Shown here one piece after another: positions 1 through 61,579 of a stretch of DNA of 64,000 bases (its first letter is position 1; the number at the start of each line of letters is the position of its first letter). The stretch is from an uncultured Candidatus Saccharibacteria bacterium (GTDB lineage Bacteria; Patescibacteriota; Minisyncoccia; Phycocordibacterales; CSBR16-119), in the NCBI GenBank assembly GCA_964557535.1, contig CAZLAD010000004.1, forward strand, positions 19,039 to 83,038, in the 5' to 3' direction. A program made the translations under genes and the position numbers. Under the pieces are notes generated by a model. That model saw nothing but the letters and a program-made list of their open reading frames with translations, was not told the DNA's origin and searched no databases.

Positions 1-2419
1 AAGGTTTTTGATTTTTAATTTCTGTTATCTTGTAGAAAATTTTTGGATCTTCTAGATATAACGCATCATTTGGACAGTTGATGATGAAGTTCATGGCAGA
101 CATCGTCATCTGTCGAGTTCGTCCGGTTGTGTTTGGACTAATCTTACTTGGTGCTCCAAGCCATGGCTTGATAATCGTATCCCAGTGCAAAGCTTGGAAA
201 TTGTGAACGGCCTGAGTGGTCGCCCAATCATATGTTCCGTTTACAGTGAGTCCAGCATTCATGTATTCGTTTAGGAATGTCTGGAGAGCTTTGACTTCAC
301 TTTTTGTACTTCCAGTATCGTGATACTGAGTGAATTGAACACAAGCAGTATCAGTTGCACCCAAGACTTCTCCGTCAGATGAAATTCTACTTCCACTAGA
401 TGAAGAAGAACCACCGCCTCCTCCACCGCCGTTATCTTCATCGTCTCCTCCACCGCCATTGTCGTCTTCACAGTCTTCATCGATGGTTAGGGTTTTTACT
501 ACAACGGTCGAATCTTGTCCGTCGTTTGCTGTATAAGTAATCGTGTATACACCATTTGCACCAAAGACTATTGGATCTGGACTAACGACGTAAGTCAATG
601 TAACGGTGTCACCGTCAGCATCACTAGTTGTGACACCACTAGTAAAGTCAAACGATTCTGCTGACCAAAGAATACACTCATCAGCCAAGACAATCGCTGG
701 AGGATTATTGTCGTCTCCGCCCTCATTATCATCGTCGCACTCTTCGTCTAGAGAGTAAGTGTAAGTTGTAGAGAATCTGTCGTCGGCTGTTCCCACGCCA
801 AGGTCAAAATACGCCTTGTCGCCAGTTATCCAAACCAAATCTTCGTGTCCACCAGCTGCTCCCGTTTCCAACTTATTCTGTCCAGTAGCCGAAGTTAAAA
901 CTGTCGGAATACCATTGAAAAATTCAATGTATCCTTCAACGAATTCCTGTCCTGTCCCCTTTGGAAGATGACTTCCGTGAAGTTCTAGAACAATTTTATT
1001 GTCTGCTCGTCTCTTTACTGCAAGTCCAGAAACGTCGGCAAAATTTTCTATATTTTGCATGTCGGCCGGAGAAACTGGGAACCACGCACCGTCCGCAACA
1101 GTATTGATTGATGATCCTAGATAAATAGTATCAGTCAAATCTCCTGCTCCAACATTTGAGTGGGAAGTTACCACGACGCGTGCCCAAACGGCCTGAGATT
1201 CACAAGATGGATTTTCTTCTTCATTATCGTTATTTACAACACGAATTGTTCGAGTCTCCTGATCTGCCGTAAGTCCTTCGGAGTCTTCGACATCGTAAGT
1301 CACGATATAAGTTCCAAGCGTATTACAATCAACTGTTCCCGCGTATTCGATTTCACTTGTGATATCTCCATCCTCAAGATCATCCGCAGTAACTCCGTTT
1401 AAAATGAATGCTTCGTCACAAACAGTTCCAATAAAGACTTCGACAACTTCTGGAACAACTGTTATATCTGGTGGGGTGTTTTTCTTGCCACCGCCGTCGT
1501 CTTCAACACAATTTACACGAACGTCATCTAGAAACATTCCAAATGAATTAGCGTCGCCAAGATCAGCAAAAGTGATTGTGTGTGACGTTGAGTCAGCGGT
1601 GAAATTGTTGGTTTTCTGATACCAGTTTGTATCTGAGTCACCAACGCCGTTAGTCGTTACCGAAAGATCCCAAGGGAAACCATCTATATATAGACCGACC
1701 TTGTTGTCATCCATTCCGTATCCAGGTCGAGCAGAATAGAAGTATGAGATTTCATATTCCTGTCCAGGAACTGTGGTGATAGTTTGAGAGATTCGAGTTG
1801 AGGCAGCTTCGTTTGAGATTGATCCGCCAGGTCCGTCAAAATCAGAATCCAGTTCTAGATACTGTTCACCGGAGTGAGCAGAGTAGATTTGCTGTAGTTC
1901 GGCTTTGGCAGGAGTTTCGTCGCCAGAACCAGCTTGCCACTCAACATCCCAAGCCAAACCTGATGTCCCGTCAGCATAGATATTCCAACCACCAGAAAGT
2001 GTCGGATTTTCAAATCCGCCGTTTTCAAAAAGGTTAATTGAAACGTCACAAGATGGTGCTGGAGTAGGAGTATGTCCGCCACCATTGCCGTCACCAGAAA
2101 CAAGATCAAAAGACTCTGTTTCACTTTCAGAGCTAGTTTCTTCTGTTACTTCTATTTCTGTTTGTTCAACTTCGCCCAGAATTTCTGTTTCTGTTTGCTC
2201 TACCTCAGTCGAGATTTCTGTCTCTGTCTGAGTACCTTCGTCTGTGGTTTCGACTTCTTCAGTAGTTGGTTCTGTAGAAACTTCTACTTCTTCGGTAGTA
2301 TCAACGGCTTCTTGAGCTCTAGCGACTAGAGGCATAAAAGATGTCGTGATAGCGAATTGGAAAATGAAGAATCCATAAAAGACTGTCTTTGAAAGATTCT
2401 TGATCTTGATATTTTTCAT
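1..2419 (-). CDS. Large secreted surface protein, partial (C-terminus beyond left edge). It has a signal peptide, an acidic Thr/Glu-rich linker, a DUF642/CBM-like beta-sandwich, two Ig-like (DUF5011/HYR-like) domains and a C-terminal peptidoglycan-binding domain.
   Basis: Hand translation of the minus strand from the ATG at 2417-2419 gives an uninterrupted frame to position 1 (>=806 aa). The ORF track omits it because there is no in-window stop. The N-terminus MKNIKIKNLSKTVFYGFFIFQFAITTSFMPLVARAQE is signal-peptide-like. The linker is an ETE/QTE repeat. The C-terminal end carries GSTKSEVKALQTFLNEY...GTYDWATTQAVHNFQ, which resembles PG_binding_1. Confidence 0.7.
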   Translation of the reverse strand, partial: MKNIKIKNLSKTVFYGFFIFQFAITTSFMPLVARAQEAVDTTEEVEVSTEPTTEEVETTDEGTQTETEISTEVEQTETEILGEVEQTEIEVTEETSSESETESFDLVSGDGNGGGHTPTPAPSCDVSINLFENGGFENPTLSGGWNIYADGTSGLAWDVEWQAGSGDETPAKAELQQIYSAHSGEQYLELDSDFDGPGGSISNEAASTRISQTITTVPGQEYEISYFYSARPGYGMDDNKVGLYIDGFPWDLSVTTNGVGDSDTNWYQKTNNFTADSTSHTITFADLGDANSFGMFLDDVRVNCVEDDGGGKKNTPPDITVVPEVVEVFIGTVCDEAFILNGVTADDLEDGDITSEIEYAGTVDCNTLGTYIVTYDVEDSEGLTADQETRTIRVVNNDNEEENPSCESQAVWARVVVTSHSNVGAGDLTDTIYLGSSINTVADGAWFPVSPADMQNIENFADVSGLAVKRRADNKIVLELHGSHLPKGTGQEFVEGYIEFFNGIPTVLTSATGQNKLETGAAGGHEDLVWITGDKAYFDLGVGTADDRFSTTYTYSLDEECDDDNEGGDDNNPPAIVLADECILWSAESFDFTSGVTTSDADGDTVTLTYVVSPDPIVFGANGVYTITYTANDGQDSTVVVKTLTIDEDCEDDNGGGGDDEDNGGGGGGGSSSSSGSRISSDGEVLGATDTACVQFTQYHDTGSTKSEVKALQTFLNEYMNAGLTVNGTYDWATTQAVHNFQALHWDTIIKPWLGAPSKISPNTTGRTRQMTMSAMNFIINCPNDALYLEDPKIFYKITEIKNQKP

Positions 2420-8807: not shown

Positions 8808-9014
8808 ATGCGTTATATTTTTGTCCTAAACCTCTTACCCGTGCAAGACGTAATCGAAATCTCAGTCCGCGAGGACATGAAAGCAAATGCCGAACTACTA
8901 TTGTACGGCATAGCGATGAGTGGATTTGGCGTGGCGCTGTTCTACGGAGCGTGTCATGTGATGTTCTTTATCGGCTCGCTCTTCAAGCGCGCCATACGAC
9001 AACGTGGTTTCTAG
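8808..9014 (+). CDS. Small hydrophobic (single-TM) protein, hypothetical
   Basis: 68-aa ORF with a TM-like stretch LLLYGIAMSGFGVALFYGACHVMFFIGSLF. A plus-oriented terminator follows directly at 9030-9066. Confidence 0.4.
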   Translation: MRYIFVLNLLPVQDVIEISVREDMKANAELLLYGIAMSGFGVALFYGACHVMFFIGSLFKRAIRQRGF

Positions 9015-9029
9015 AAGGAAGCCACAAAA

Positions 9030-9066
9030 GAAGCCCTGCGGATTTATTCGCAGGGCTTCCGTTTTT
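9030..9066 (+). terminator. Intrinsic terminator (GAAGCCCTGCG-gatttattc-GCAGGGCTTC plus T-run)
   Basis: 11-bp stem followed by CGTTTTT. Also readable on the minus strand, so a possible uvrA terminator. Confidence 0.65.
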
Positions 9067-9085
9067 AACTTCAAACCCAAGCGAA

Positions 9086-9163
9086 GTAAAATCTGAATTT
9101 TCTGAACCCGAGGACATAGTGCGTAGACACGCTCCCGGAGGGTAAAGAAAATTCAGATTTTAC
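9086..9163. repeat. 17-bp perfect inverted repeat (GTAAAATCTGAATTTTC / GAAAATTCAGATTTTAC) enclosing a 44-nt loop with an internal GCGT-AGAC-ACGC hairpin
   Basis: Arms at 9086-9102 and 9147-9163. Immediately 3' of the uvrA stop (9175). AT-rich stem. Confidence 0.8.
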
Positions 9164-9174
9164 GAAGCGATTTT

Positions 9175-11871
9175 TTACGAAGCCCCCTTCATAGCCTTCT
9201 TGGTCTTCACCAAAACTTTCTTCAAATATTTTCCGGTGTGAGATTTTTCATTGTTTGCCACTTCTTCGGGCGTGCCTTTGGCTACGAGCTTGCCGCCGTT
9301 TTCCCCGCCATCAGGACCGAGATCGATGATATAGTCAGCGACTTTTATAAGATCCAAATTGTGCTCGATGATGACAACCGAATTTCCACGAACAACAAGC
9401 TTGTTTAGAACTTCTATTAGTTTTGCCACGTCGTCATAGTGAAGTCCGACCGTTGGCTCATCGAGGAGATAAATTGTTCTCTCCGTCATCGGACGATAGA
9501 GTTCACTAGAAATTTTCACACGCTGGGCCTCCCCGCCAGAAAGCGTCGTCGCTGGTTGACCAATTTCGATATAGCCAAGTCCGACATCATCGAGTGTTTG
9601 TAGTCTGTCAGCAATCGCCGGAATGTCTTCGAAGAATTTAAGTCCGTCCTCGACTGTCATTTTCAAAATTTCGTAAATATTTTTGCCTTTGTATTTTACT
9701 TTCAAAGTTTCTTTGTCGAAACGCTTACCATCACAGACATCGCATTTTACATAAACTGTCGGCAAGAAATGCATTTCCACAGCCACAAGTCCGCGACCTT
9801 CGCAGGCTTCACAACGACCACCTTTGACGTTGAATGAAAATCGATTCGCCTTCCAACCACGAAGCCGCGCTTCTTCGCTCTCGGCAAACATGTCGCGAAT
9901 ATGCCCCCAGGCTCCGGTATATGTCGCGACATTTGACCTTGGAGTTCGGCCGATTGGTGACTGGTCGATAAGAATCGAGCGCGAAACGCTTTCGGCGCCG
10001 AGAAAAGACGCGCAGTTAAAAGTTTTGGCGCTCCGATAACGTCGGTCAAAACGCGCGCGCAAATTCTTGTCGAGAATTTCGTACATGAAACTAGATTTAC
10101 CCGAGCCCGAAACACCCGTGATGACCGTCATCCGACCAAGTGGCACATCGACGTTTAGATTATCAATGTTAAAAATTTTCCCACCACGGATTTTGATCCA
10201 GCCCTTGTCAGCCTCACGACGTTTTTCGGGGAGAGCGATGTATGCCTCGTCGCGCAAATACGCGAGTGTACGAGATTTTGATTTGTTTGTTTTGGCCGTG
10301 AGAAGTTCGTCGAGATAATCCGCAACCACAATTTCCCCACCATGTACACCGGCTTTGGGACCAATATCGACGATATAATCAGACGCATAAATCGTATCTT
10401 CGTCATGTTCTACGACGACAATTGTGTTCCCAAGGTCGCGCAAATCCTCGAGCGTTTTGATCAGACGATCGTTATCACGCTGATGAAGTCCAATCGTCGG
10501 CTCATCGAGAACATACATCGCCCCAACAAGTCTAGAACCGAGCTGTGAAGCAAGTCTGATGCGTTGCGCTTCCCCGCCCGAAAGCGTATTGGCGCGACGT
10601 TCGAGAGCCAGATAGTCCAAGCCGACGTTTAACATAAATTTCAAACGGTCTTCGATTTCTTTGATGATGACCGCAGAAATCTCGCGTTCTTTCGCCGAGA
10701 GTGGAACGGTTGAAATAAAATCATACGCGTCACGAATCGTCATTTTGGTAAAGTTTACGATATTTACACCCCCGCCCGAACGACCGGATGGGTCATTCGG
10801 TCGGGCGGGTTTAGACTTTCCACCCAAGAAAACGTTCAATGCTTCTTCACGAAGTCTGGCCCCATGACACGTCTCGCACGGCTCAGTGCCGAAAAGATGT
10901 TTAGTCCCCAATCCATTACAGGCTGGACAGGCGCCGTATGGAGAGTTGAAAGAGAAAAGTCTCGGCTCGATTTCTGGAAACACGTATCCATCCTCTGGAC
11001 AAATAAGTTTTGCTGAGAGCAATGTTTCTTCTTGATTTTCGTTTTTAACAATGTCTGGTTCGCCCACAACAATACGGATGAAGCCTTCTGATTCGGAAAT
11101 AGATCGCTCAATCGCTTCACCAAGTCGCATTTCAAAATCCCCTGCATTGTCGCGCATTTCATGAACGGCAAAACTATCGATGAGTAAATCGATTTCGTGC
11201 TTTTTGTTTTTCGAAAGTTCAATCGACTCGCGAAGATTTTTCATCCGACCGTCGATGCGGATTTTCTGATAACCTTTGCCGAGCAAATCATAAAGATATT
11301 GATAGTATTCGCCCTTTCGTCCACGCACGACCGGTGAGAAGATGTGGATTTGAGTATCATTCCATTCCGCTCCCATAATTTTTTTCGTGTTTCCTTTTTT
11401 GGAAAGATCAGAAATTTTGTTTTTGATGAACTCAGAAATTTCTTGGTTTGAAAGTTTTTTTATCTCGAGTCCTGAAATCGGACTGTACGGACGTCCAACG
11501 CGCGCATACAGAACGCGGAGGTAGTCGTAGATTTCGGTGATAGTCGCAACCGTCGAACGCGGATTATTCGAACGAGACTTTTGATCGATTGAAATAGCTG
11601 GTGAAAGTCCCGTAATCTCGTCGACGTCCGGCTTTGGCATTTGCGAAAGAAATTGTCTGGCATAAGAAGAAAGCGATTCGACATATCGACGCTGACCTTC
11701 CGCGAAAATTGTGTCGAACGCGAGCGAAGATTTACCCGAGCCAGAGAGCCCCGTAAATACCACCATTTTATTTCGTGGCATAGAAACAGTCACATTTTTC
11801 AAATTATGTGTTCTGGCACCTTTGACCACGATTTCGCCGTAATCTGGTTTGTTTTCTTGTTTGTTTTTCAT
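9175..11871 (-). CDS. uvrA: Excinuclease ABC subunit A
   Basis: 898 aa. Two ABC ATPase modules ([30 protein letters not shown]), LSGGEAQR signatures twice, Zn-finger CxxC motifs. Confidence 0.95.
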
Positions 11872-15355: not shown

Positions 15356-17427
<2,072 letters not shown>

Positions 17428-38809: not shown

Positions 38810-39286
38810 GCTGTGTCCTGCCGTAGCTTATTAAGCGAAGGCGGAATAATAATTATTAAAATTAACTCGACTCCAAAAAAGCAAAAGTCAACAAGGCTAC
38901 GACCTCATTGTCTCAATGATCTCTTGGTTTTATAAAATTTTACTTAGCAATGCTTTGTATTATTTACCCCGACCAAAGTGGAAGGGGCCGCGCCTATTAA
39001 TACAATTGCTTTTCCGCCAAAACTCAATCTGGGCAATTAGTTTCTCTAGTATATCCGAAATCTAAAATCTGTCAAACCGTACGACCGTTAAAAATATTGC
39101 GTTTAAAAACCAAGCTAGTTTGCCTTAAAAGTCCGTACTGTTTGAGAAGAGCTCAAGCTCTTCGAGTTTACGGATCTTTTTGGCTTAAACTAACTTGGTT
39201 TTAGCAAATATTTTTTCAGGTCAAAGGAGTTTTTGGTTACTTTTTTCTCCGTAAAAAAGTAACGTCCGGTCATCGCTTGCGATGGC

Positions 39287-41076: not shown

Positions 41077-43767
41077 TTATTGATTAAATAGTCTAATTAA
41101 TTCATCAAAGTTTTTTGCCAGATTTTCTTCATATTCTTCTTGTTGTACATATAAAGCCCTATATATAACTCGACTTTGTCGATCATTCACATCCGCACAC
41201 CACTGCTTCAATCGTTCAAACTTGATTTTGTCGTTTTCTTCTTCGCGTCCCTTTGTTTCTATGATGTACACCTGCTTGTCATCAACCTTCACAAAGAAGT
41301 CAGGATAATAAGTCGCAATGAACCCTTCTGCATTTTTATACTCAATACGAAGAGCGGTTGCTTCTTTGTTTTGAAAGTTCTTTGCAAATGAAATGATATC
41401 ATCGCAACCTTCAAGGAAGTTTGCAAATTCAAGCTCAAAGTTACTATCACCCACAATGTGGTTAAAGACAGTCTTTTTAGGATGCGCTAAGAACGCCTTA
41501 TCATTAACAACAAACGGACGTGCTTCACTAATTTTGATATAGTTTTTTATTTCAGTATCTCCTATATCTTGTACGGTCAATTCATTGATATGTTTTTTGA
41601 ATACATCCTTGATGAGTTTTATATACTCAACTTCAGACAAATTGCGGAGCACATTGAGGTCTGCAAGGTCCACAGATTGCTCGAACATATTGTTTGCAAT
41701 AAAATCTTTCACCTTACCGAAAAGAATGTCGTAACAGCTAAATAAGCGCATTTCGCGCATTATTGCTTGAGTAAAGAACCCAACTACACTCTGATAATTT
41801 GGCTCAATGTCACCATTCAAAATGGTAGTGTGATGAACCGATTCAGCAACCACATCTTTGAAGACAATCTCTCGTTTTTCTTGCTCGGAGAATGTCTTTA
41901 TTTTTACCTTCTCGTTTCCGAAAGTAGAAACGTCTAGGTTTGCAAGATTTTTGTATTCTCGTTGTATACGAGCTGTCATTACAGGGAGCTCAATATCAAG
42001 CTTCTCAATGTCTTTCTTTTCGTTTTCCTTATCAACTTCAATGACCATCGGTGATATAGGTTTTGAACCAGTTCCCATCAATCGCTTCTCAAGGAGCACG
42101 CCTTCACCCTTGATACTTTCAACAAAATCCATAAAGGCAGGAGTGCCAATCACGCTCACATATTCATCAATATCATCTCTCCCGAAATACATTCTTCGCA
42201 AACCCCGCCCAAGTGTTTGCTCAGGAAGGATTTTACTATCAGAAGCGTACGGACGAAGCCCTACAATAGTGGTCACATTTTTCACATCCCAACCCTCCTT
42301 GAGCATCATTACTGAAACAATGGCTTTATACGGACTTTCCCAGCTATCGATTTCATTTGATTCTTTTCGAAGTTTATCAAGCTCATCTTTATTTTTTGCT
42401 GTTACACTTTCTGATATTTCTCCTTTCTGGTTTGTATGAATAGTAAGGACAGCGCCTTTAAGTTCTGGATAGTTCATCTCCAAATAATCTGCAACATCAT
42501 CACAGTTTTTGGTGTCATCAGTCATTATAAAAAGAAGTGATTTCTTTCCAGTTGGTTCAAGTCGCTTGAAAGTTTTTCTCCATTCTTCAACTCCAAGGTT
42601 GATATGGTCTCTCCATTTTTCCGTAAAGACTACACTTTGACCTTCTTTGAGTTTTCCCCGACTCGCTTCATCAGGTACAACTGGCTGTTTTACTACTCGT
42701 TGGTGAATTGCTTCAACCAAAGGATAATCAGAAATTGTTTGAACAAAAATTGAGCCTTTACTGTTTTTTGGAGTAGCGGTAACATCAAGCTGAAGTGAAA
42801 GCCCTCCACCTTTTTGTTTGAGTTTGTTATCAATATCACGAATAGATTTGAGCCACGCATTTTCTTCGTGAATATGATGAGCCTCGTCATTGATAACAAT
42901 AAGTTCATCAATATCTCTGACCACCATCCCTAAATCAACCGTACCTTCGTTTGTCTTTGTTACAGGTTTATCGCCAAGGAAGTATTCTGAACTATCTTCA
43001 TCTTCAGCACTATAATCTTTTACATCACTTTCAAATACTCTGTGGATGTTGGTAAGAAATATGTTCCCAGTATCAGAAACGTTCTTAAGATCATCTTGGA
43101 GGTGTAGTGTAATCTGAAAATCGTCCTGCCAGTTTTGACCCATATAACCATTATCAGGAAGAACAGGGTCTTGAAAGAATATCTTGTTGCCTTCAAAGTC
43201 ATTCTTGATACGCTCAAACACGATAACGTTTGGAGCAATGAGTAAGAAGTTCTTTGCTAGATTAGAGCCTTCTTCGTATAGTTCATGGAAATATGCCCAA
43301 GCGACAACAAGGCTCATTACCTTGGTTTTACCAGCTCCTGTGGCCATTTTAACAACAAATCGAAGCCACTCTTCAGTAAACATTTGAGCACTTAAAATCC
43401 CACTTGAATTGTATCTCATTAGATGGTGTTTGTCTCTTACTTTAGCAACCTCATAGAGCCACACAACAGTCTCAATTGCTTCTCTTTGAGAGAAATAATA
43501 TCGGAAATTATAGGAAAAACCGTCCTGATTGTAGAGGATGTGTTCTTCCTTGAACCACCACGTCAAAAGGGCTTTTGAGGTCTCACTTGCTCCTTCATAG
43601 TTATTATCCCGCCACGATTTAACTTGTCTTCTAAGTTCAGCGACCAGAGGAGGAATTAATCTCTCATAATCAGCTGTATTTCTTAAATCCTCAGTAGCAG
43701 GAAACCACCTGATTTCAGGGTTGAGAATTGCATATGGGTCTTTTGGAAAATCTTTGTGTAGTGCCAT
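41077..43767 (-). CDS. res: Type III restriction enzyme Res subunit (SF2 helicase + C-terminal PD-(D/E)xK nuclease)
   Basis: 896 aa. Walker A TGAGKT, DEAHH box (INDEAHHI), motif VI QTLGRGLRR, C-terminal YYPDFFVKV...ETKGRE nuclease core. Confidence 0.9.
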   Translation of the reverse strand: MALHKDFPKDPYAILNPEIRWFPATEDLRNTADYERLIPPLVAELRRQVKSWRDNNYEGASETSKALLTWWFKEEHILYNQDGFSYNFRYYFSQREAIETVVWLYEVAKVRDKHHLMRYNSSGILSAQMFTEEWLRFVVKMATGAGKTKVMSLVVAWAYFHELYEEGSNLAKNFLLIAPNVIVFERIKNDFEGNKIFFQDPVLPDNGYMGQNWQDDFQITLHLQDDLKNVSDTGNIFLTNIHRVFESDVKDYSAEDEDSSEYFLGDKPVTKTNEGTVDLGMVVRDIDELIVINDEAHHIHEENAWLKSIRDIDNKLKQKGGGLSLQLDVTATPKNSKGSIFVQTISDYPLVEAIHQRVVKQPVVPDEASRGKLKEGQSVVFTEKWRDHINLGVEEWRKTFKRLEPTGKKSLLFIMTDDTKNCDDVADYLEMNYPELKGAVLTIHTNQKGEISESVTAKNKDELDKLRKESNEIDSWESPYKAIVSVMMLKEGWDVKNVTTIVGLRPYASDSKILPEQTLGRGLRRMYFGRDDIDEYVSVIGTPAFMDFVESIKGEGVLLEKRLMGTGSKPISPMVIEVDKENEKKDIEKLDIELPVMTARIQREYKNLANLDVSTFGNEKVKIKTFSEQEKREIVFKDVVAESVHHTTILNGDIEPNYQSVVGFFTQAIMREMRLFSCYDILFGKVKDFIANNMFEQSVDLADLNVLRNLSEVEYIKLIKDVFKKHINELTVQDIGDTEIKNYIKISEARPFVVNDKAFLAHPKKTVFNHIVGDSNFELEFANFLEGCDDIISFAKNFQNKEATALRIEYKNAEGFIATYYPDFFVKVDDKQVYIIETKGREEENDKIKFERLKQWCADVNDRQSRVIYRALYVQQEEYEENLAKNFDELIRLFNQ

Positions 43768-43771
43768 AAAA

Positions 43772-44725
43772 TTAAAACGGATTTTCGGCGAATAATTCTT
43801 GTTTTCTTTTTAAAACCTGTTCATTAACAGCAAATCCTTTACTTAATAATTCCTCTCCTAACCAATGATAACCAGATATTTCTTTGAATTGATTATTAAC
43901 AGTTGATTCAATATAAAAATGCTCCCAATCTTCCAACTGAAGTTTTCCATTTTTAAACAATTCATTAAAAAATGTTTTACCTGAACTAGACTCAATAATC
44001 TGATTATACATACCACCATTTTTAAGAGAGTTAACAAGTATTTTTTTCTGGTTTTCTATACTTATTGATTCTAAATTTTTTTCTAAAAACTTAAGCGGCG
44101 CCTTCGCAGCCTCAAAACTTGGTATGGTTGGCAAGCTATCAATTAATTTTGCAATTAGAAAATCCTTGTCATCATTAGATAAGCTAATTTCCCCAGAATA
44201 AAATTTAGAAAAATCTGTTGGGGAGATATATGTATTTCTATGTTCTTCTTGTAATTTTTGGAAAATTACACATATTTCTCTTAAGAAATTTACTATGTCA
44301 TTTTCTTGATTAGCTAGAGTTGGATCACAAACATGGCCAGCAGTATGACGATCTTGTTTTAAGCTTTTTAATTTTTTTAAAAAATTACTATCGATGGGAT
44401 AAAGAATGTTTAGAAAATTTATAACCTCATCATCATCGAGCTGGTTATATGCATACAAATTTTTTTTATCATATTTTGCTATATCATATTTTTCAGCCTT
44501 AAAAATAGTGTTCCATTTTTGAGTAAAAACATCTTCATCGATTATATACCGTACCTGTTGTATCTTTTCATAAACAAAAAGCATAAAAAGTTTCCAAAAT
44601 AAAATTACAGAAAAATCAAAAATCTTGTTTTCTAGTGAGCCATCAAGCTGGCTACCGTAATTAGAATAGTTAATTATCAATCTTGGCAAATTTTCTATTT
44701 TCTGTTTAAAGTCTTCGTTAATCAT
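43772..44725 (-). CDS. Hypothetical protein embedded between mod and res; candidate HEPN-like (Rx4H) domain protein. The Abi_2/DUF4145-like assignment is tentative.
   Basis: 317-aa ORF. Its ATG overlaps the mod stop (ATGA at 44722-44725) and its stop lies 4 nt before the res start. The only motif I can recognise is LKQDRHTAGH (R-x4-H). It is the most AT-rich gene in the window. Confidence 0.6.
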   Translation of the reverse strand: MINEDFKQKIENLPRLIINYSNYGSQLDGSLENKIFDFSVILFWKLFMLFVYEKIQQVRYIIDEDVFTQKWNTIFKAEKYDIAKYDKKNLYAYNQLDDDEVINFLNILYPIDSNFLKKLKSLKQDRHTAGHVCDPTLANQENDIVNFLREICVIFQKLQEEHRNTYISPTDFSKFYSGEISLSNDDKDFLIAKLIDSLPTIPSFEAAKAPLKFLEKNLESISIENQKKILVNSLKNGGMYNQIIESSSGKTFFNELFKNGKLQLEDWEHFYIESTVNNQFKEISGYHWLGEELLSKGFAVNEQVLKRKQELFAENPF

Positions 44726-46836
44726 AACTTTACATCAATTACTCTGGTAGTGTCGTTTCCGAATATGTCTACGACCTTTATTGCAATCTTGTAGTCTCCT
44801 TTGGGAAGCTCTTTGGGAGCAGAGACCAGTTCAAGATTTCTATTCTTCTTAGTACGGAATGTTTGCCATTCGTTATCGAAGATATAGTCTCCAGTCCAGA
44901 CTTCTTTCTCTTCACCATCCTCAATAACCTTGATGATTTCCTTACGGTCCGTAAAGTTATAATCAACCGCCCAGTAATCAATCCAGTCACTCCATTTCTT
45001 TGTGAGTTGCTCCGGTGGATTACTATTCCCTTCTTTATCAGTGGTTACTTTCCAGATTTGTCCTTGATCTACAATAATTTTTGTTTTATTTTTTTGACCT
45101 GTCAAATCCTCTACTACACTATCTAAAACATTTTGTGAGTAAAATACAGAGAAATCAGTGAGCTCAATTGAAAGCTCTTTCATATTTCCACGTCCAGAAA
45201 TAATTGGTTTGATGTCGATATATGCAACATCATAGAAGTTCACGTGACCACGCTCTACAGCTCGTTTATCGAATACTTCACGAGGAATAATCTTGAAAGC
45301 AACATCAATACCTTCGTCAGCGTATTCACTGAAGTTCATTCCCATTTCGTAGTCAAAGCCGAGAACATCAATCTTAGTGAGATTTTTGCTCTTACATTCA
45401 TCAACAATCTCACGAATAAACTTTGAAGATACAGGGAGGTTGATTGGACCCACCGCAACCAAACGGTCACGCTTTTTACCTACAATATGAGCGAAGCTTT
45501 CTACGGCTTCTGCTTTGTATGCAGAAAGAATAAGTTTGATAAAATCTTTCTCTTTTCGTTCTGCTTGTTTTGCTTTTTCTTCAGCTCGCAAGTCATCGTT
45601 GGTAGTGAGGAAGCTTTCTCGTTCATATTTACCGATGTTCAAAATCTCAAAAGCACGGAAGTCTTTTCCAGCTTTTTTGAGTTCACGCTGAACACCCACC
45701 ATTCGCTTTCGTGATGTATGAATACCAAACTTTCCAAGGTCTGTACCAATCCACTTACGACCAAGCTTTTCTGCAACAGCTAAAGTTGTACCTGAGCCAC
45801 AGAAGAAATCAGCAACTAAATCACCTTGATTAGAAGATGCACTGATAATTCGTTCAAGAAATGCTTCAGGCTTTTGTGTTGGATACTTTACTGCTTCATC
45901 GTGACTAGATACTACAATGTTGAACTCAAAAACATCTGTTGCAGGTTTTCCTTGTTCATTCATATAGGTGTTATAGACCCTACCGTCTGACATTCTGTTT
46001 TCTTTGTACCTACGACCATTTTCATCAACTTTATTGAAACGAGCGAGAGTTGCTTCAGCAAACTCTTCAAACTGCTGATTGAATTGATAATTTTCAGATT
46101 TTGAATAAAAGAAAACAGTATCGTGCTTTCTTGCAAAAAAACGAGTTGAGCTTGCACCTCCGCTATATTTCCAAATAATTTCATTTCTGAAATTATCCTT
46201 ACCAAAAATCTCATCAAGAACCAATCTTATATGTCCTGAAAGTCTCCAGTCACAATGAACATAAATACTTCCATCTTCAGCAAGTAATGAGTGCATCAGC
46301 TTGATACGCTCATAAATCATCGCAATAAAACTATCTGCACCTTTACCCCAAGTGTCTCTATATGCGATTTCTTCAATTACAGATGGTTTTTTAGTGAAGC
46401 TCTCGGCATCTCCACCATCACCAATTTCTATATCCATTGAGAAGTCAGCCCCAACGTCAAACGGTGGGTCGATATAGATGAGCTTGAGCCCACCTTGAGC
46501 CTCAATCTCTTTACGCATAGGACCATTCTTGAGGGATGAGAGGATGAGTTTGTTATCTCCCCAAATGAGCTTATTGGTCCAACCAGTTATTTGTTTACCA
46601 GAGAAATCAAAGAGAGTTCCTTTATCTCCAAACTCTTTACCTTCACGAGGTTCATCAATCTGCTCGATTACTTGGAATGGAAGAACTACGTTAGTGACTT
46701 CGTTAGACTTTCCATTCCAAACAAGCTCAACTTCACGGTCATCTTTGAAGAGCAGGAAGCGATATTTCTCTGGGAGAGGTTTACCAGCTTCTAGGTATTT
46801 TATGATGTCTCGTTTTTCTGAATCCGTAAGTTTCAT
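44722..46836 (-). CDS. mod: Type III R-M Mod subunit (beta-class N6-adenine methyltransferase with a long C-terminal extension)
   Basis: 704 aa. DPPF (IYIDPPFDVG) precedes the AdoMet motif FFCGSGTT, which is the beta-class order. Confidence 0.9.
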   Translation of the reverse strand: MKLTDSEKRDIIKYLEAGKPLPEKYRFLLFKDDREVELVWNGKSNEVTNVVLPFQVIEQIDEPREGKEFGDKGTLFDFSGKQITGWTNKLIWGDNKLILSSLKNGPMRKEIEAQGGLKLIYIDPPFDVGADFSMDIEIGDGGDAESFTKKPSVIEEIAYRDTWGKGADSFIAMIYERIKLMHSLLAEDGSIYVHCDWRLSGHIRLVLDEIFGKDNFRNEIIWKYSGGASSTRFFARKHDTVFFYSKSENYQFNQQFEEFAEATLARFNKVDENGRRYKENRMSDGRVYNTYMNEQGKPATDVFEFNIVVSSHDEAVKYPTQKPEAFLERIISASSNQGDLVADFFCGSGTTLAVAEKLGRKWIGTDLGKFGIHTSRKRMVGVQRELKKAGKDFRAFEILNIGKYERESFLTTNDDLRAEEKAKQAERKEKDFIKLILSAYKAEAVESFAHIVGKKRDRLVAVGPINLPVSSKFIREIVDECKSKNLTKIDVLGFDYEMGMNFSEYADEGIDVAFKIIPREVFDKRAVERGHVNFYDVAYIDIKPIISGRGNMKELSIELTDFSVFYSQNVLDSVVEDLTGQKNKTKIIVDQGQIWKVTTDKEGNSNPPEQLTKKWSDWIDYWAVDYNFTDRKEIIKVIEDGEEKEVWTGDYIFDNEWQTFRTKKNRNLELVSAPKELPKGDYKIAIKVVDIFGNDTTRVIDVKL

Positions 46837-49295: not shown

Positions 49296-49622
49296 TTAAA
49301 TTCCTTTTAGATCTTCCATCGTCTGGTCAACATCAGCAGATGCTACTGGTGTGCCCATTCCGGCTGGTTTGACATATCCTTCTGGTTCTTCGATTTTCAA
49401 GTTTACACGTGAATTGTTCTTCATACCGATGACTCGTAGAAGTGTACGCATAGCTTTCGCTGTGTTTCCTTGTCGGCCGATGATTTTGCCCATGTCTTCG
49501 CCATTTACTGACAAAGTTAGAAGCACTCCCATTTCGTCAACTTTTCTGTCGAGCTTTACATCATTTGGATGGTCTACTAATGCCTTTACTACATACTCTA
49601 GAAATTCCTGATCTCTTTCCAT
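49296..49622 (-). CDS. KH-domain RNA-binding protein (KhpA/YlqC-like); start at MERDQEF
   Basis: VDHPNDVKL...LSV...DMGKIIGRQGNTAKAMRTLL is the KH fold signature. Conserved position after rpsP. Confidence 0.8.
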   Translation of the reverse strand: MERDQEFLEYVVKALVDHPNDVKLDRKVDEMGVLLTLSVNGEDMGKIIGRQGNTAKAMRTLLRVIGMKNNSRVNLKIEEPEGYVKPAGMGTPVASADVDQTMEDLKGI

Positions 49623-49719
49623 AATTATCTGTCTACTATTTTCTAATGAACGCAGTTCTCTGACTAAGAAAACCTGCTGTGTACATTGTACCACGATTAA
49701 ATGAAAACAAAAAGCAGTA

Positions 49720-49797
49720 GCCGGCGAGGTTCGTTTGATTTCCGACCGTTTGGTTGGGTTAGGTTTGGAGGGAGTAAAGCAAATGAACCGAGCCGGC
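49720..49797 (+). ncRNA. Copy A of a repeated ~80-nt structured element (outer GC stem, tandem G.A, inner stem, G-rich interior), followed by TTTTT
   Basis: GCCGGC-GA-GGTTC ... GAACC-GA-GCCGGC closing helix. Internal GACC-GTTT-GGTT hairpin. Homologous to 60938-61022. Confidence 0.45.
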
Positions 49798-49808
49798 TTT
49801 TTAAATTA

Positions 49809-50111
49809 TTATTTTGCTTCGGCTTCTTTCTTGGCCTGCTTGGTGCGTTTTGGCAAGACGTTCTTTTTCTTGGCGTCGACGATTTTTTGATCTACGAGAA
49901 AATTGTGAATCGTTCCCGATGCCTGCGCGCCCATTTTCAGCCAGTACTTTATACGGTCGGCTTTCAATTCTACGAGACCAGCCTTTGGATTGTAATTGCC
50001 AAGAATTTCCTGGAATTTACCACTCTGAGCAGAATCTGTGGACTCAGTCAAAACAACCCGAAATGCCGGGGTATTTACGCGTCCAGTTCTTTGTAATCTG
50101 ATTTTTAACAT
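49809..50111 (-). CDS. rpsP: 30S ribosomal protein S16 (start at MLKIRLQR)
   Basis: MLKIRLQRTGRVNTPAFRVVLTES is the S16 N-terminus. The ORF track extends 12 codons upstream. Confidence 0.95.
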   Translation of the reverse strand: MLKIRLQRTGRVNTPAFRVVLTESTDSAQSGKFQEILGNYNPKAGLVELKADRIKYWLKMGAQASGTIHNFLVDQKIVDAKKKNVLPKRTKQAKKEAEAK

Positions 50112-59134: not shown

Positions 59135-59280
59135 ATTTTACCACACCAGGCAAAGAAAAATCCTCATAAAAAGGACTCTCGCAAGAAAAAGCCCGCCTTT
59201 TGAAGGGCGGGCTTTTCGAGAGGGAGAAGTTTGTCGTTTACAGACAAAACTTCGTGCCTTTTTATGAGTATTTTTCTTTG

Positions 59281-59973
59281 CTAATCCAACCACTTTTTTA
59301 GCTTGAGTGCTTCCTGAGCCGCAGCCTGCTCACCTTCTTGTTTGGATTTGCCGGAGCCTTTGGCAATAAGTTCATCTCCAAAAAATACACCGATAGTAAA
59401 ATTCTTATCATGGTCTGGGCCGGTTTCTTCAAGCACTTCATAGCGCGGCGTAATGTTCACAATCTCTTGAGCTTTTTCTTGGATTAGAGACTTGGAATCG
59501 CGCCAAAGTTTCTGAGCAACGATTTTTTCAATCTTGCCAAACAAAGCATCGGCTATGAATTTCTTGGCCGCATCATAACCAGCGTCTAGAAATATCGCGC
59601 CGATAACTGATTCGAAAGTGTTAGCGAGAATGTAGTCACGTGCCTTGCCTGTATCTTTGGCTTCGCCTTTGGACAAAAGAAGATAGTCGTTCATGCCAAG
59701 CTCCACCGCCGCAGCAGAAATCGAAACGGTATTAACGACAGCCGCACGGATAGCGGTTAGGTCGCCCTCTGATTTACCTGGGTAGCGTGCAAAAAGCTCT
59801 TCAGTTGTGACGAGTTCAAGCACCGCATCGCCCAAAAATTCTAGGCGTTCATTGTGAGACCCTGCACCAGCGTTTTCGTTTATATATGATCGATGAGTAA
59901 AAGCTTGTTTTAGTAGATCCTTGTCTTTGAAGTCTAAGTTATTTTCGGTTTCAAATTTCGCGAAGTTCGGCAT
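59281..59973 (-). CDS. rnc: Ribonuclease III
   Basis: 230 aa. ERLEFLGDAVLELV signature, C-terminal dsRBD. Confidence 0.95.
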   Translation of the reverse strand: MPNFAKFETENNLDFKDKDLLKQAFTHRSYINENAGAGSHNERLEFLGDAVLELVTTEELFARYPGKSEGDLTAIRAAVVNTVSISAAAVELGMNDYLLLSKGEAKDTGKARDYILANTFESVIGAIFLDAGYDAAKKFIADALFGKIEKIVAQKLWRDSKSLIQEKAQEIVNITPRYEVLEETGPDHDKNFTIGVFFGDELIAKGSGKSKQEGEQAAAQEALKLKKWLD

Positions 59974-59979
59974 AATTTT

Positions 59980-60879
59980 TTATTTATTGGTAACGTAGTC
60001 GATTGACTGCGCCAGAAGCGGCAGTATATCGTCGTAGGTGTTTATACTTTCTAATTCGGAGAGCTTGAACCACCTGGCGTCATCGAGTCCGCCGTTTGAA
60101 TGAAGGTCCATCTCCTTCCAGGGCGTCTTTACCAGATAGTAGCTAACCTGTTTTAGGATTTTACCTTTTTCCGGATGAGATGCAACATATTCATTTTCAC
60201 CCAAAAGTTTAACGATTTCGACATCCAGTCCGGTCTTTTCTTTTATCTCGCGGATTGCGCCCTCTTCGGAAGTTTCATTTCCTTCCACTCCACCCTTGGC
60301 TAGCGTCCAATAACCAAAAACATCGTGCACGAGCCCGACCAAAGTTTCTCCATCTTTCTCTGTAATGATTACTCCGCCGGCTTTCTTCTCTTTTGGAAGT
60401 TTTTCTGGATCGTCTTCGTTATTTGCGCGTTTCTTTGGAGTGATCTGATCTTTGCCTGGTTCCCCCATTTCTTTGTAAACTGCGCCCAAAACACCGTTGA
60501 CGAATTTGCCAGATTTCTCGCCACCGAAAGTTTTTCCAAGTTCGATGGCTTCGTTGATAGCAACCTTTGGCGGAACCTCATCTTTGTTTGAAAACAAAAG
60601 TTCAGCCAGACCAATGCGCAAAACATTGCGATCAACAATCGCAATTTTATCCATTGGCCAATCAGGCGCGGCTTTTTCTATGATCTCATCGATGAGAACA
60701 TATTTTTTTAAAACCTGATCAAGCAGGTGTTTGGTAAAGGAGACTTCTTTCATTCCTGGCGCAAACTCGGCAAGATTGCGTTCGAGATATTCTGGAGCAG
60801 ATTCATTTTTCTGCCCATTAAAATCCCACTCAAAAAGTGTTTGTAAAACGACTGATCGTGCAAGGTGCCTATTGGCCAT
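59980..60879 (-). CDS. nusB: NusB antitermination factor fused to a C-terminal NUDIX hydrolase domain
   Basis: aa 1-140 are NusB-like (ARSVVLQTLFEWDF...KFVNGVLGAVYKEMGE). aa about 165-299 carry a Nudix box GGVEGNETSEEGAIREIKEKTGL. Confidence 0.8.
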   Translation of the reverse strand: MANRHLARSVVLQTLFEWDFNGQKNESAPEYLERNLAEFAPGMKEVSFTKHLLDQVLKKYVLIDEIIEKAAPDWPMDKIAIVDRNVLRIGLAELLFSNKDEVPPKVAINEAIELGKTFGGEKSGKFVNGVLGAVYKEMGEPGKDQITPKKRANNEDDPEKLPKEKKAGGVIITEKDGETLVGLVHDVFGYWTLAKGGVEGNETSEEGAIREIKEKTGLDVEIVKLLGENEYVASHPEKGKILKQVSYYLVKTPWKEMDLHSNGGLDDARWFKLSELESINTYDDILPLLAQSIDYVTNK

Positions 60880-60937
60880 AATGATAAGAACAAATTCTAT
60901 TAAAAGACTCTAATATTCTAACAAAGAAATAACTTAA

Positions 60938-61022
60938 GTGCGAGGTTTGATTGTGATTTTCCGACCGTTTGGTCTGGTTAGGTTAGGAGGAAGGAAAATT
61001 ACAAGCAAACCGAGCGCGAGCC
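60938..61022 (+). ncRNA. Copy B of the repeated ~80-nt structured element, immediately 3' of rpmF
   Basis: GTGC-GA-GGTTTG ... CAAACC-GA-GCGC closing helix with a U.G wobble on the plus strand. Internal GACC-GTTT-GGTC hairpin and GGTTAGGTTAGGAGG tract. Confidence 0.45.
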
Positions 61023-61024
61023 AA

Positions 61025-61216
61025 TTACTTGGCTTTTGATTTCTTGTCGCTAGATTTAACAACTGCCAAGACTTGTTTGCCTCGGTATTTGCCAGTTTCG
61101 AGTGAGACGCGATGACGAAGATGAGGAGTATTTGTCTCCTTATCGATAACGATATTCGCCATCGGTGCTCTATGATGAGACCTACGATTTTTCGTATGGG
61201 CTCTTGTGTGTCGCAT
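61025..61216 (-). CDS. rpmF: 50S ribosomal protein L32 (start at MRHTRAHTKNRRSHH; the ORF track extends to 61336)
   Basis: KNRRSHHRAP...THLRH...YRGKQV matches the L32 consensus (K.S.SRR..RRAHHAL......TG..HLRHH....G.YRG..V). Confidence 0.85.
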   Translation of the reverse strand: MRHTRAHTKNRRSHHRAPMANIVIDKETNTPHLRHRVSLETGKYRGKQVLAVVKSSDKKSKAK

Positions 61217-61294
61217 TCGGACTACCATGGCAACCAGTATACGGAAAACAGGGATTTTTGCAAGTTTTTGAGCTTTTACACAATTGTCTGGATT

Positions 61295-61579
61295 ATGGAG
61301 CCGTGGTATCCTTGGCCCATGGATGGTCTTGAACAAAAAATAGACAAGCTAATAAATACTATTGAAGGAATCGACAAAAAACTCGACGGCCATATTGAAT
61401 TTGTCGCTGAACGCATGACGAAGATCGAAGACCGTCTTGATGGCATGTCGACTAAAGCTGATTTGCAAAATGCCAAACAAGAACTCTTTGATAAGATTTC
61501 CGAAAATAAATACGAGATCCAGGGCAAAGTTAATGATCACGAAGTTCGTATCCAAAAATTAGAAACTAACATCGCCTAA
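61295..61579 (+). CDS. Hypothetical coiled-coil protein (start at MEPWYPWPMDGLEQKIDK)
   Basis: The trimmed 94-aa version of ORF 61112..61579 avoids overlap with rpmF. Heptad-like composition. Confidence 0.4.
   Translation: MEPWYPWPMDGLEQKIDKLINTIEGIDKKLDGHIEFVAERMTKIEDRLDGMSTKADLQNAKQELFDKISENKYEIQGKVNDHEVRIQKLETNIA

Follow-up and report, generated by a model that had tools for sequence, protein, structure and literature searches.

A possible REP/ERIC-like extragenic hairpin repeat in the terminator slots behind rpmF and rpsP of an uncultivated member of the Paceibacteria

The 64-kb stretch of DNA considered here (part of contig CAZLAD010000004.1; the window, below, is this whole stretch) contains a structured element of about 80 nucleotides (nt) at 60938–61017 on the plus strand, between the gene for ribosomal protein L32 (rpmF) and a gene encoding a NusB-NUDIX fusion protein. 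This element, copy B, is the second copy of an element located at 49720–49797 behind rpsP, the gene for ribosomal protein S16 (copy A). Copy B probably belongs to a small family of imperfect palindromes of about 75–90 nt, and its host is an uncultivated bacterium of the Paceibacteria (Patescibacteria, or candidate phyla radiation, CPR), the group into which the homologues of the NusB-NUDIX protein fall. We see an even chance that copy B is a dispensable, lineage-restricted extragenic hairpin repeat of the REP/ERIC/SPRITE kind, which sits in terminator slots and has been exchanged or duplicated among loci and lineages. This interpretation draws on the repeat itself, a fold with covarying stems, a pattern of presence and absence among relatives, a member located away from ribosomal-protein genes, and the replacement of a terminator hairpin by the element.

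A preliminary description of this DNA had listed copy B as a second copy of the element at 49720–49797, and the repeat is genuine: a repeat search of the window gave a 40-nt core with 88% identity between copies A and B (family D15), the two copies agree in 80–84% of columns over about 80 nt when aligned with MAFFT, and a 24-nt core pattern has two matches in the 64 kb, copies A and B themselves, against 0.00 expected from shuffled sequences. The parts described at that time, an outer stem, a tandem GA, an inner stem, a GACC-GTTT-GGTC hairpin and a G-rich tract, were all recovered in the predicted fold. The span then assigned to copy B (60938–61022) holds for the element but not for its right edge, which lies at 61017; what follows is a separate small hairpin. 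The architecture common to copies A and B consists of an outer stem (P1), a tandem G·A loop, an inner stem (P2), the GACC-GUUU-GGUC hairpin (P3) and a bulge, GGUUAGGUUAGGAGG, and the order in copy B is GUGC-GA-GGUUUGAUUGUGAUUUUCC-GACCGUUUGGUC-UGGUUAGGUUAGGAGGAA-GGAAAAUUACAAGCAAACC-GA-GCGC (Table 1). The plus strand of copy B has a predicted folding energy of −37.9 kcal/mol (z = −5.96 relative to shuffled sequences). Within the G-rich tract, GGUUAGGU and GGAGG are invariant in all variants, and the frame GCGAGG...CCGAGC is common to copies A and B and to a hairpin at one related locus (L009), with GAA/GAA at the same place in a third member of the window, copy C.

Covariation was assessed on an alignment of four distinct variants: copy B of the window, the orthologous copy at locus L001 (L001B), copy A of the window and a strain variant of copy A. 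Over the 27 pairs of the proposed structure, 96.9% of the cells are paired and seven pairs have changed on both sides, whereas shifting the partners by 1–3 columns, as a control, left 26–48% pairing and at most one double-changed pair (0–1). The helix made up of P1 and P2 (23 pairs, 96% of cells paired) has seven double-changed pairs, five of them within P2; P1 (columns 1–4 with 77–80 of alignment A4) has four pairs, of which two carry changes at both positions when the copies are compared. Between copy B and L001B the P2 helix has been almost wholly rewritten, with pairing kept, and in the comparison between species P3 and the G-rich tract are about 80% identical, whereas the stems are about 50% identical yet paired. 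The similarity of copies A and B is not confined to low-complexity sequence, a possibility raised in the preliminary description, because the stems covary, with seven compensatory pairs.

Related loci, designated by L-numbers, were collected by exact-protein look-up (a look-up of the RpmF of the window returned no record). A Logan assembly, SRR12487045, matches the window with 100% identity along 4.6 kb. Among the loci compared, copy B is present only in the window and at L001/L002, the NusB of which is 85% identical, and it is absent from L003–L008 and L010–L012, which have instead a plain bidirectional terminator overlapping the rpmF stop codon. L013, from the same species (98.1% nucleotide identity over nusB–rnc), also lacks copy B: the BLAST alignment breaks at 60930–61022, where L013 has 18 nt and the window 93 nt, and the MAFFT alignment has a 75-nt gap at copy B. 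Judged from rpmF identity, each carrier of copy B is nested among non-carriers, the window being nearest to L005 and L013, and L001 nearest to L010. The rpmF of L013 is nearer to that of L005 (97.5%), another species-level lineage, than to that of the window (94.1%; L013 compared with window positions 59187–61348), which places a recombination breakpoint exactly at the copy-B spacer. The rpmF–nusB spacer of L009 contains a shorter hairpin (39–81, minus strand of the locus) with the same GCGAGG...CCGAGCGC frame and a different apex, a simple 9-bp (base-pair) hairpin standing where the element has P3 and the G-rich tract; the element may derive from this shorter hairpin, or the reverse. Copy A was found in all seven further contigs of the same species that encode an identical S16 (several independent sequencing runs, two point variants), and L001, L010 and L012 have a perfect A-tract/stem/U-tract terminator at this site instead.

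Each copy is flanked by a stop codon on one side and by the next promoter on the other. Copy A lies exactly where relatives have their terminator hairpin, between a conserved A-tract and U-tract, and at site B a 75-nt block has been added next to a terminator hairpin that has also been remodelled. The small terminator-like hairpin at 61018–61035, which is separate from copy B and overlaps the rpmF stop codon (61025–61027), corresponds to the bidirectional rpmF terminator of relatives or is what remains of it. Downstream on the plus strand there is a U-run at A (GCCGGC-UUUUU) and C (U6), a helper hairpin with a U-tract at B and nothing at L001B; on the sense strand, a U-rich tract begins 0–6 nt past the stem at A (6 nt), B, C and L001B, with at least five U in the first 8 nt only at L001 and copy C. 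The elements are therefore embedded in bidirectional-terminator contexts.

If copy B is an extragenic hairpin repeat, these observations may be accounted for as follows. The element would occupy a terminator slot, a few bases behind a stop codon (rpmF, rpsP, uvrA) and just ahead of the next promoter, and would be gained and lost between close relatives, presumably spreading or being exchanged by duplication or recombination. When transcribed, it would form a long hairpin comprising P1, the tandem G·A loop, P2, P3 and the G-rich bulge, which may act as a 3' hairpin, a terminator or a stabilizer, and its presence would be tolerated because relatives have a bidirectional terminator at this position, which the element replaces or strengthens. 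Since copies A and B share only about 80% identity, further copies must exist outside the window.

Both copies do lie beside the stop codons of tiny ribosomal-protein genes, rpmF at 7 nt and rpsP at 11 nt, and the preliminary description had taken this as an argument for a functional association, possibly a ribosomal-protein-binding autoregulatory element. The coincidence is real, as two of the two A/B-type copies abut such stop codons in a window with about three ribosomal-protein genes among roughly 55. It is nevertheless extremely improbable that S16 or L32 binds a hairpin in its own mRNA and thereby controls its own synthesis. The distinctive features of the element lie on the plus strand of the window, which is antisense to rpmF, rpsP and uvrA, and the G·A loops, G·U wobbles and G-rich bulge therefore cannot form in the ribosomal-protein mRNAs. 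The element stands 3' of the gene rather than in a leader; it is not conserved together with these genes, being absent at rpmF in L003–L008 and L010–L013 and at rpsP in L001, L010 and L012, which are close relatives or, in the case of L013, a strain of the same species; and a related member is found behind uvrA, as are its orthologues in relatives. Many genes of the window have a −10 box 6–12 nt before the ATG, which suggests that most mRNAs are leaderless, and a Shine-Dalgarno motif, even a loose one, precedes only 5 of 37 starts; rpmF itself appears to be leaderless, judging from TTGCAA-16-TATACT-7-ATG at its start (61228). A protein bound to such an mRNA would therefore have nothing to occlude. 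Autoregulation by ribosomal proteins is thus largely refuted, and copy B should not be annotated as a ribosomal-protein regulatory element. If it is a hairpin repeat, its ribosomal-protein neighbours would reflect the type of site, that is, short, strongly terminated, monocistronic units, and not binding of S16 or L32.

The member behind uvrA was detected with a covariance model (R1) built from the four A/B variants and scanned over the window with filters off, which returned copies A and B and one further significant match (26.3 bits, E about 1e-3), copy C. Its base reads GC-GAA-G...C-GAA-GC, its stem is perfect over 18 bp, and it shares the motifs UUUUCUGAACC and GGAGGGUAAAGAAAAU with copy A and L001B; plain sequence similarity to copies A and B is weak (z 1.7–2.7, in the same orientation only), and copy C is a probable distant member of the family. 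Orthologues of copy C, with fully re-paired stems, stand behind uvrA in L031/L032 and L033. Relative to L031, both partners have changed in seven of 11 stem pairs and pairing is 100%; hardly any change is seen in the base motif or in the 30-nt apex. The preliminary description had considered that the element might turn out to be a randomly distributed generic repeat; the family is indeed not confined to ribosomal-protein genes, but it has only three members in 64 kb. Beside copy C lies a small open reading frame (ORF) for a hydrophobic protein of 68 amino acids (aa), convergent with uvrA, with its own canonical bidirectional terminator at 9024–9065 (8808–9065 in all, plus strand), and the order of small ORF, terminator and copy C is conserved in L031 and L033.

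Other long palindromes occur in the window. A near-perfect palindrome of 104 nt (16218–16321) lies inside tgt, which encodes queuine tRNA-ribosyltransferase (15356–16666, minus strand); it adds 32 residues in frame, which are missing from the orthologues in L029 and L031, and it shows weak similarity to copy C (shared ACCCGAGGAC, z 2.9). A composite palindrome of 132 nt (59150–59281) fills the rnc–smc spacer, which in relatives is between 37 and 303 nt long. The 3' arm of this palindrome reaches the rnc stop codon, and inside its outer stem of 25 bp (96% complementary) lie a bidirectional terminator and a second hairpin. The similarity of both to the A/B type is at background or marginally above it, and what they demonstrate is tolerance of such palindromes by the genome, not membership of the family; the tgt palindrome is unrelated, or only distantly related, to copy B. 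Upstream of rpoB, a further structured non-coding element (39083–39244, ...UUUGCCUUAAAAGUCCGUACUGUUUGAG-hairpin-CGAGUUUACGGAUC...) has copies with 74–79% identity in the rnc–smc spacers of L005 (11679–11806) and L009 (1781–1938), with five pairs showing compensatory change and no Rfam match. The window also encodes a type III restriction-modification pair (41077–46836, minus strand), consisting of a ResIII helicase/endonuclease and an N6/N4 DNA methylase, with an unknown 317-aa ORF between them.

The orientation of the element bears on two other explanations. The purine-purine loop (GA/GA, or GAA/GAA in copy C) would read UC/UC on the opposite strand, and the plus strand has 6–7 G·U wobbles, each of which would turn into a C·A mismatch in the mRNA sense; in the opposite direction there is about one. 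The plus strand also folds at lower energy than the minus strand (in kcal/mol: −37.9 and −24.5 for B, −37.2 and −27.4 for A, −30.8 and −22.9 for L001B); shuffle z-scores give no plus-strand preference for A or L001B, and the energy gap is therefore partly a matter of G+U richness. The plus strand of the window is C-rich overall (GC skew −0.05), the opposite direction, and mutational bias was therefore rejected as the source of the G·U asymmetry.

These features favour the main rival explanation, which we judge to be unlikely: that the copies are paralogous plus-strand genes for small RNAs (sRNAs), convergent with and antisense to the flanking genes, with transcripts of about 85–110 nt starting at the divergent side of the neighbouring promoter and stopping at the common bidirectional terminator. 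The functional site would then be the exposed GGUUAGGUYWGGAGG bulge, a protein platform or a seed or decoy (e.g. for the CCUCC 3' end of 16S rRNA). An antisense sRNA was the other role named in the preliminary description. The conservation of an asymmetric apical module while the stems covary would fit such RNAs, as would the plus-strand terminator signals after A, B and C (three of four variants), but L001B has no such terminator and one variant of copy A (L022) breaks the U-run. The −10 boxes of nusB and the KH-domain gene next to copy A are near-palindromic by eye (TAATAT/TAGAAT and TACATT/TACAAT) and could therefore fire divergently into the element; a promoter scan nevertheless found no consensus plus-strand promoter upstream of A or B, and the gap between copy C and the terminator before it is only about 14 nt. 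The lack of a plus-strand preference in the z-scores of A and L001B also speaks against an sRNA, as does the dispensability of the element within the species, and a search of the window for complements of the G-rich tract found only the elements themselves. There is a precedent in the sRNAs derived from MITEs, the miniature transposable elements with inverted repeats (PMC10969869), and since these exist, a repeat and an sRNA would not be mutually exclusive. A self-propagating family of terminator-embedded antisense sRNAs in which GGUUAGGU..GGAGG is a Shine-Dalgarno mimic or a protein platform is very unlikely; such an RNA could be a decoy for the 16S rRNA 3' end, or its regulatory action could be linked to how small ribosomal-protein genes are expressed.

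The second explanation places the function in the DNA: a single-stranded or cruciform hairpin would be recognized by a recombinase, an HUH transposase or a replication protein, and the conserved G-rich module would be a protein-binding site serving the element's own propagation. This is decidedly unlikely. It would agree with gain and loss at identical positions in two lineages, with the common orientation of all members and with a conserved module flanked by fast-evolving, perfectly paired stems; template switching in palindromes can yield stems of this kind. At the copy-C site of L031, GCGAAGC, a very stable DNA mini-hairpin, is present in both arms. The window, however, contains no candidate enzyme gene, the copies share no cleavage-site or target motif, and the G-rich strand is the leading-strand template, as judged from gene orientation and skew, whereas IS200/IS605-type elements use the more exposed lagging-strand template.

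Several findings weigh against copy B being an extragenic hairpin repeat of the REP/ERIC kind. The G·A loops and the 6–7 G·U wobbles all face antisense to the genes and run counter to the GC skew, which a neutral palindrome or a mere sense-strand terminator does not predict. The best-conserved part, P3 with the G-rich bulge, is asymmetric and non-palindromic and is accompanied by stems that diverge but still pair, together the classic signature of a selected RNA. The A/B type is only weakly similar to copy C and the two other palindromes (D and E; z 1.7–2.9), and the three members in 64 kb are accompanied by none in about 290 kb of relatives outside orthologous sites. No transposase, RAYT or reverse transcriptase is encoded in the window, and no Y1/HUH domain was found among the 30 window proteins scanned. 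There are no conserved terminal inverted repeats, P1 being GCCGGC in A, GUGC in B and 2 bp in C, and comparison of filled and empty sites gave no consistent target-site duplication (GCGAG flanks B, but not A or C).

Searches for known families gave no match to the element. Over the whole window, only two tRNAs reached the gathering threshold of Rfam 15, with no rRNA, and a local Rfam search of the element (E ≤ 10) returned generic hairpins only, far below threshold (miRNA precursors; Fibro-purF, with 12.5 bits where 60 are required). The tRNA/tmRNA search found nothing relevant to it. None of 185,579 species-representative genomes contains the core motif, and scans for it in JGI metagenomes and IMG/VR gave only GGTTAGG low-complexity or chance matches (L014–L021); IMG/VR also had zero matches to a relaxed version of this motif and zero to the apex motif of copy C. 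A chimeric six-frame peptide query of the A/B type had no match among 5.8 billion proteins, in a search of low power. Full-text literature searches on non-coding RNA in CPR/Patescibacteria brought up no description of such an element; the one fully matching paper on Patescibacteria, on TIGR-Tas, is unrelated.

Several specific identities were also rejected. The copy has tandem G·A pairs beside a G-C-rich helix, as in a kink-turn, but it lacks the 3-nt bulge and has a symmetric loop of 2x2 in A, B and L009 and of 3x3 in C; a box C/D motif and a T-box GA motif were likewise rejected, the element having neither the bulge nor C/D boxes. An integron attC site (GTTAGGT matching GTTRRRY) was discarded, as the motif lies in an unpaired bulge with no RYYYAAC partner, between syntenic housekeeping genes, and attL/attR sites of an island were discarded because syntenic housekeeping DNA makes up the 11 kb that separate A from B. 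Domain IV of signal recognition particle (SRP) RNA, which GGUUAGGUUAGGAGGAAGG resembles, was rejected given the lack of a supporting Rfam SRP match, the wrong position of the hairpin and the existence of two copies. A small ORF behind GGAGG would have different frames in A and B and no conserved start codon, and a G-quadruplex is not chosen by a G4-aware fold. A strict MITE was rejected in view of the lack of shared terminal repeats and target-site duplication and the internal position of the conserved part.

The flanking genes at copy B are all on the minus strand (Table 1). The 5' region of nusB has an extended −10 box, TGTTAGAAT (60915–60923), followed in the short leader by a boxA-like sequence, GUCUUUUAAUA (60898–60908), and both are conserved in all the relatives examined; we presume that the latter could be a NusB/NusE autoregulatory boxA. 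At its promoter, the KH-domain gene next to copy A has TGGTACAAT.

Table 1. Positions of copies A, B and C, the parts of copy B and the neighbouring genes in the window
Feature	Positions	Strand	Remarks
Copy A	49720–49797	+	Between rpsP (49809–50111, −; stop 11 nt away) and a KhpA-like KH-domain gene (49296–49625, −)
Copy B: P1 5' arm GUGC	60938–60941	+	Pairs with 61014–61017, one U·G wobble; fold
Copy B: GA/GA internal loop (tandem G·A), 5' half	60942–60943	+	Symmetric; partner 61012–61013
Copy B: P2 5' arm GGUUUGAUUGUGAUUUUCC	60944–60962	+	19-pair helix with 60993–61011
Copy B: P3 hairpin GACC-GUUU-GGUC	60963–60974	+	Fold; G-C in B, G·U in A and L001B
Copy B: unpaired 18-nt G-rich tract UGGUUAGGUUAGGAGGAA	60975–60992	+	Most conserved part; alignments, variants from seven other contigs
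Copy B: P2 3' arm GGAAAAUUACAAGCAAACC	60993–61011	+	Pair counts on alignment
Copy B: 3' GA of internal loop, then P1 3' arm GCGC	61012–61017	+	Fold, pair counts
Small terminator-like hairpin GAGCCAA-UUAC-UUGGCUU, then UUGAUUUCUU	61018–61045	+	Terminator scan, element-free relatives
rpmF (L32, 67 aa)	61025–61228	−	Stop 7 nt from copy B
nusB-NUDIX fusion gene	59980–60879	−	Start 58 nt from copy B; Pfam PF01029 and PF00293 on homologues
Copy C	9079–9170	+	4 nt behind uvrA stop (9175–9177, −); R1 match

To our knowledge, almost nothing is known about the non-coding elements of Patescibacteria, the genomes of which are small, reduced and derived from uncultivated organisms. If copy B is a REP/ERIC-like repeat, even such streamlined genomes would carry and exchange small palindromes that rewrite terminators. 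Such repeats would be useful for strain typing and for annotation, in which they may give rise to spurious ORFs and false 'regulatory' motifs, and they would help to explain how 3' ends are formed in a lineage whose mRNAs are largely leaderless. A functional plus-strand RNA, on the other hand, would represent a new mobile class of small RNA with an unusual Shine-Dalgarno-like loop.

Among known systems, the leader RNAs of ribosomal-protein genes in Rfam resemble the element in their neighbourhood only: strand and gene side are wrong, the element is not conserved together with the genes, and there is no match. Plain bidirectional terminators occupy the same place (stop codon, A-tract, hairpin, U-tract), as in relatives at both sites, but the ordinary terminators of the window are perfect palindromes of 15–20 bp, whereas copy B has 80 nt, G·A loops, a nested hairpin and an 18-nt conserved unpaired tract. 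Repeats that mimic or provide intrinsic terminators at gene ends are known (PMC10969869), and copy A similarly replaces the terminator hairpin of relatives, but there is no sequence relationship and the U-tracts here belong partly to the flanks. The palindromic elements of Rickettsia insert in frame into genes (PMC10969869); they are comparable in having a reduced-genome host and a palindrome without classical terminal repeats or target duplications, and the tgt insert of the window is in frame, but copies A, B and C are intergenic and the tgt insert is only weakly similar to them. More generally, elements of the MITE/REP type sit in 3' untranslated regions, act as terminators and insert in frame, and REP and ERIC elements, as RNA, form 3' hairpins that influence termination or mRNA stability (PMC10969869).

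The closest likeness is to the REP/REPIN and ERIC elements of proteobacteria, which are about 35–130 nt long. Copy B differs from them in the lack of a RAYT transposase in the window and of a GTAG-type motif, in its very low apparent copy number, in its lineage, Patescibacteria, and in its most conserved part, which is an asymmetric G-rich bulge with a small hairpin and not the arms of the palindrome. It resembles them as a short imperfect palindrome in transcribed spacers, mostly just behind stop codons, with strain-variable presence at orthologous sites and stems that are kept paired. As an extragenic imperfect palindrome at the 3' ends of genes, polymorphic for presence or absence at orthologous sites, the element matches, functionally and positionally, the class of extragenic palindromic repeats (REP/REPIN, ERIC, SPRITE).

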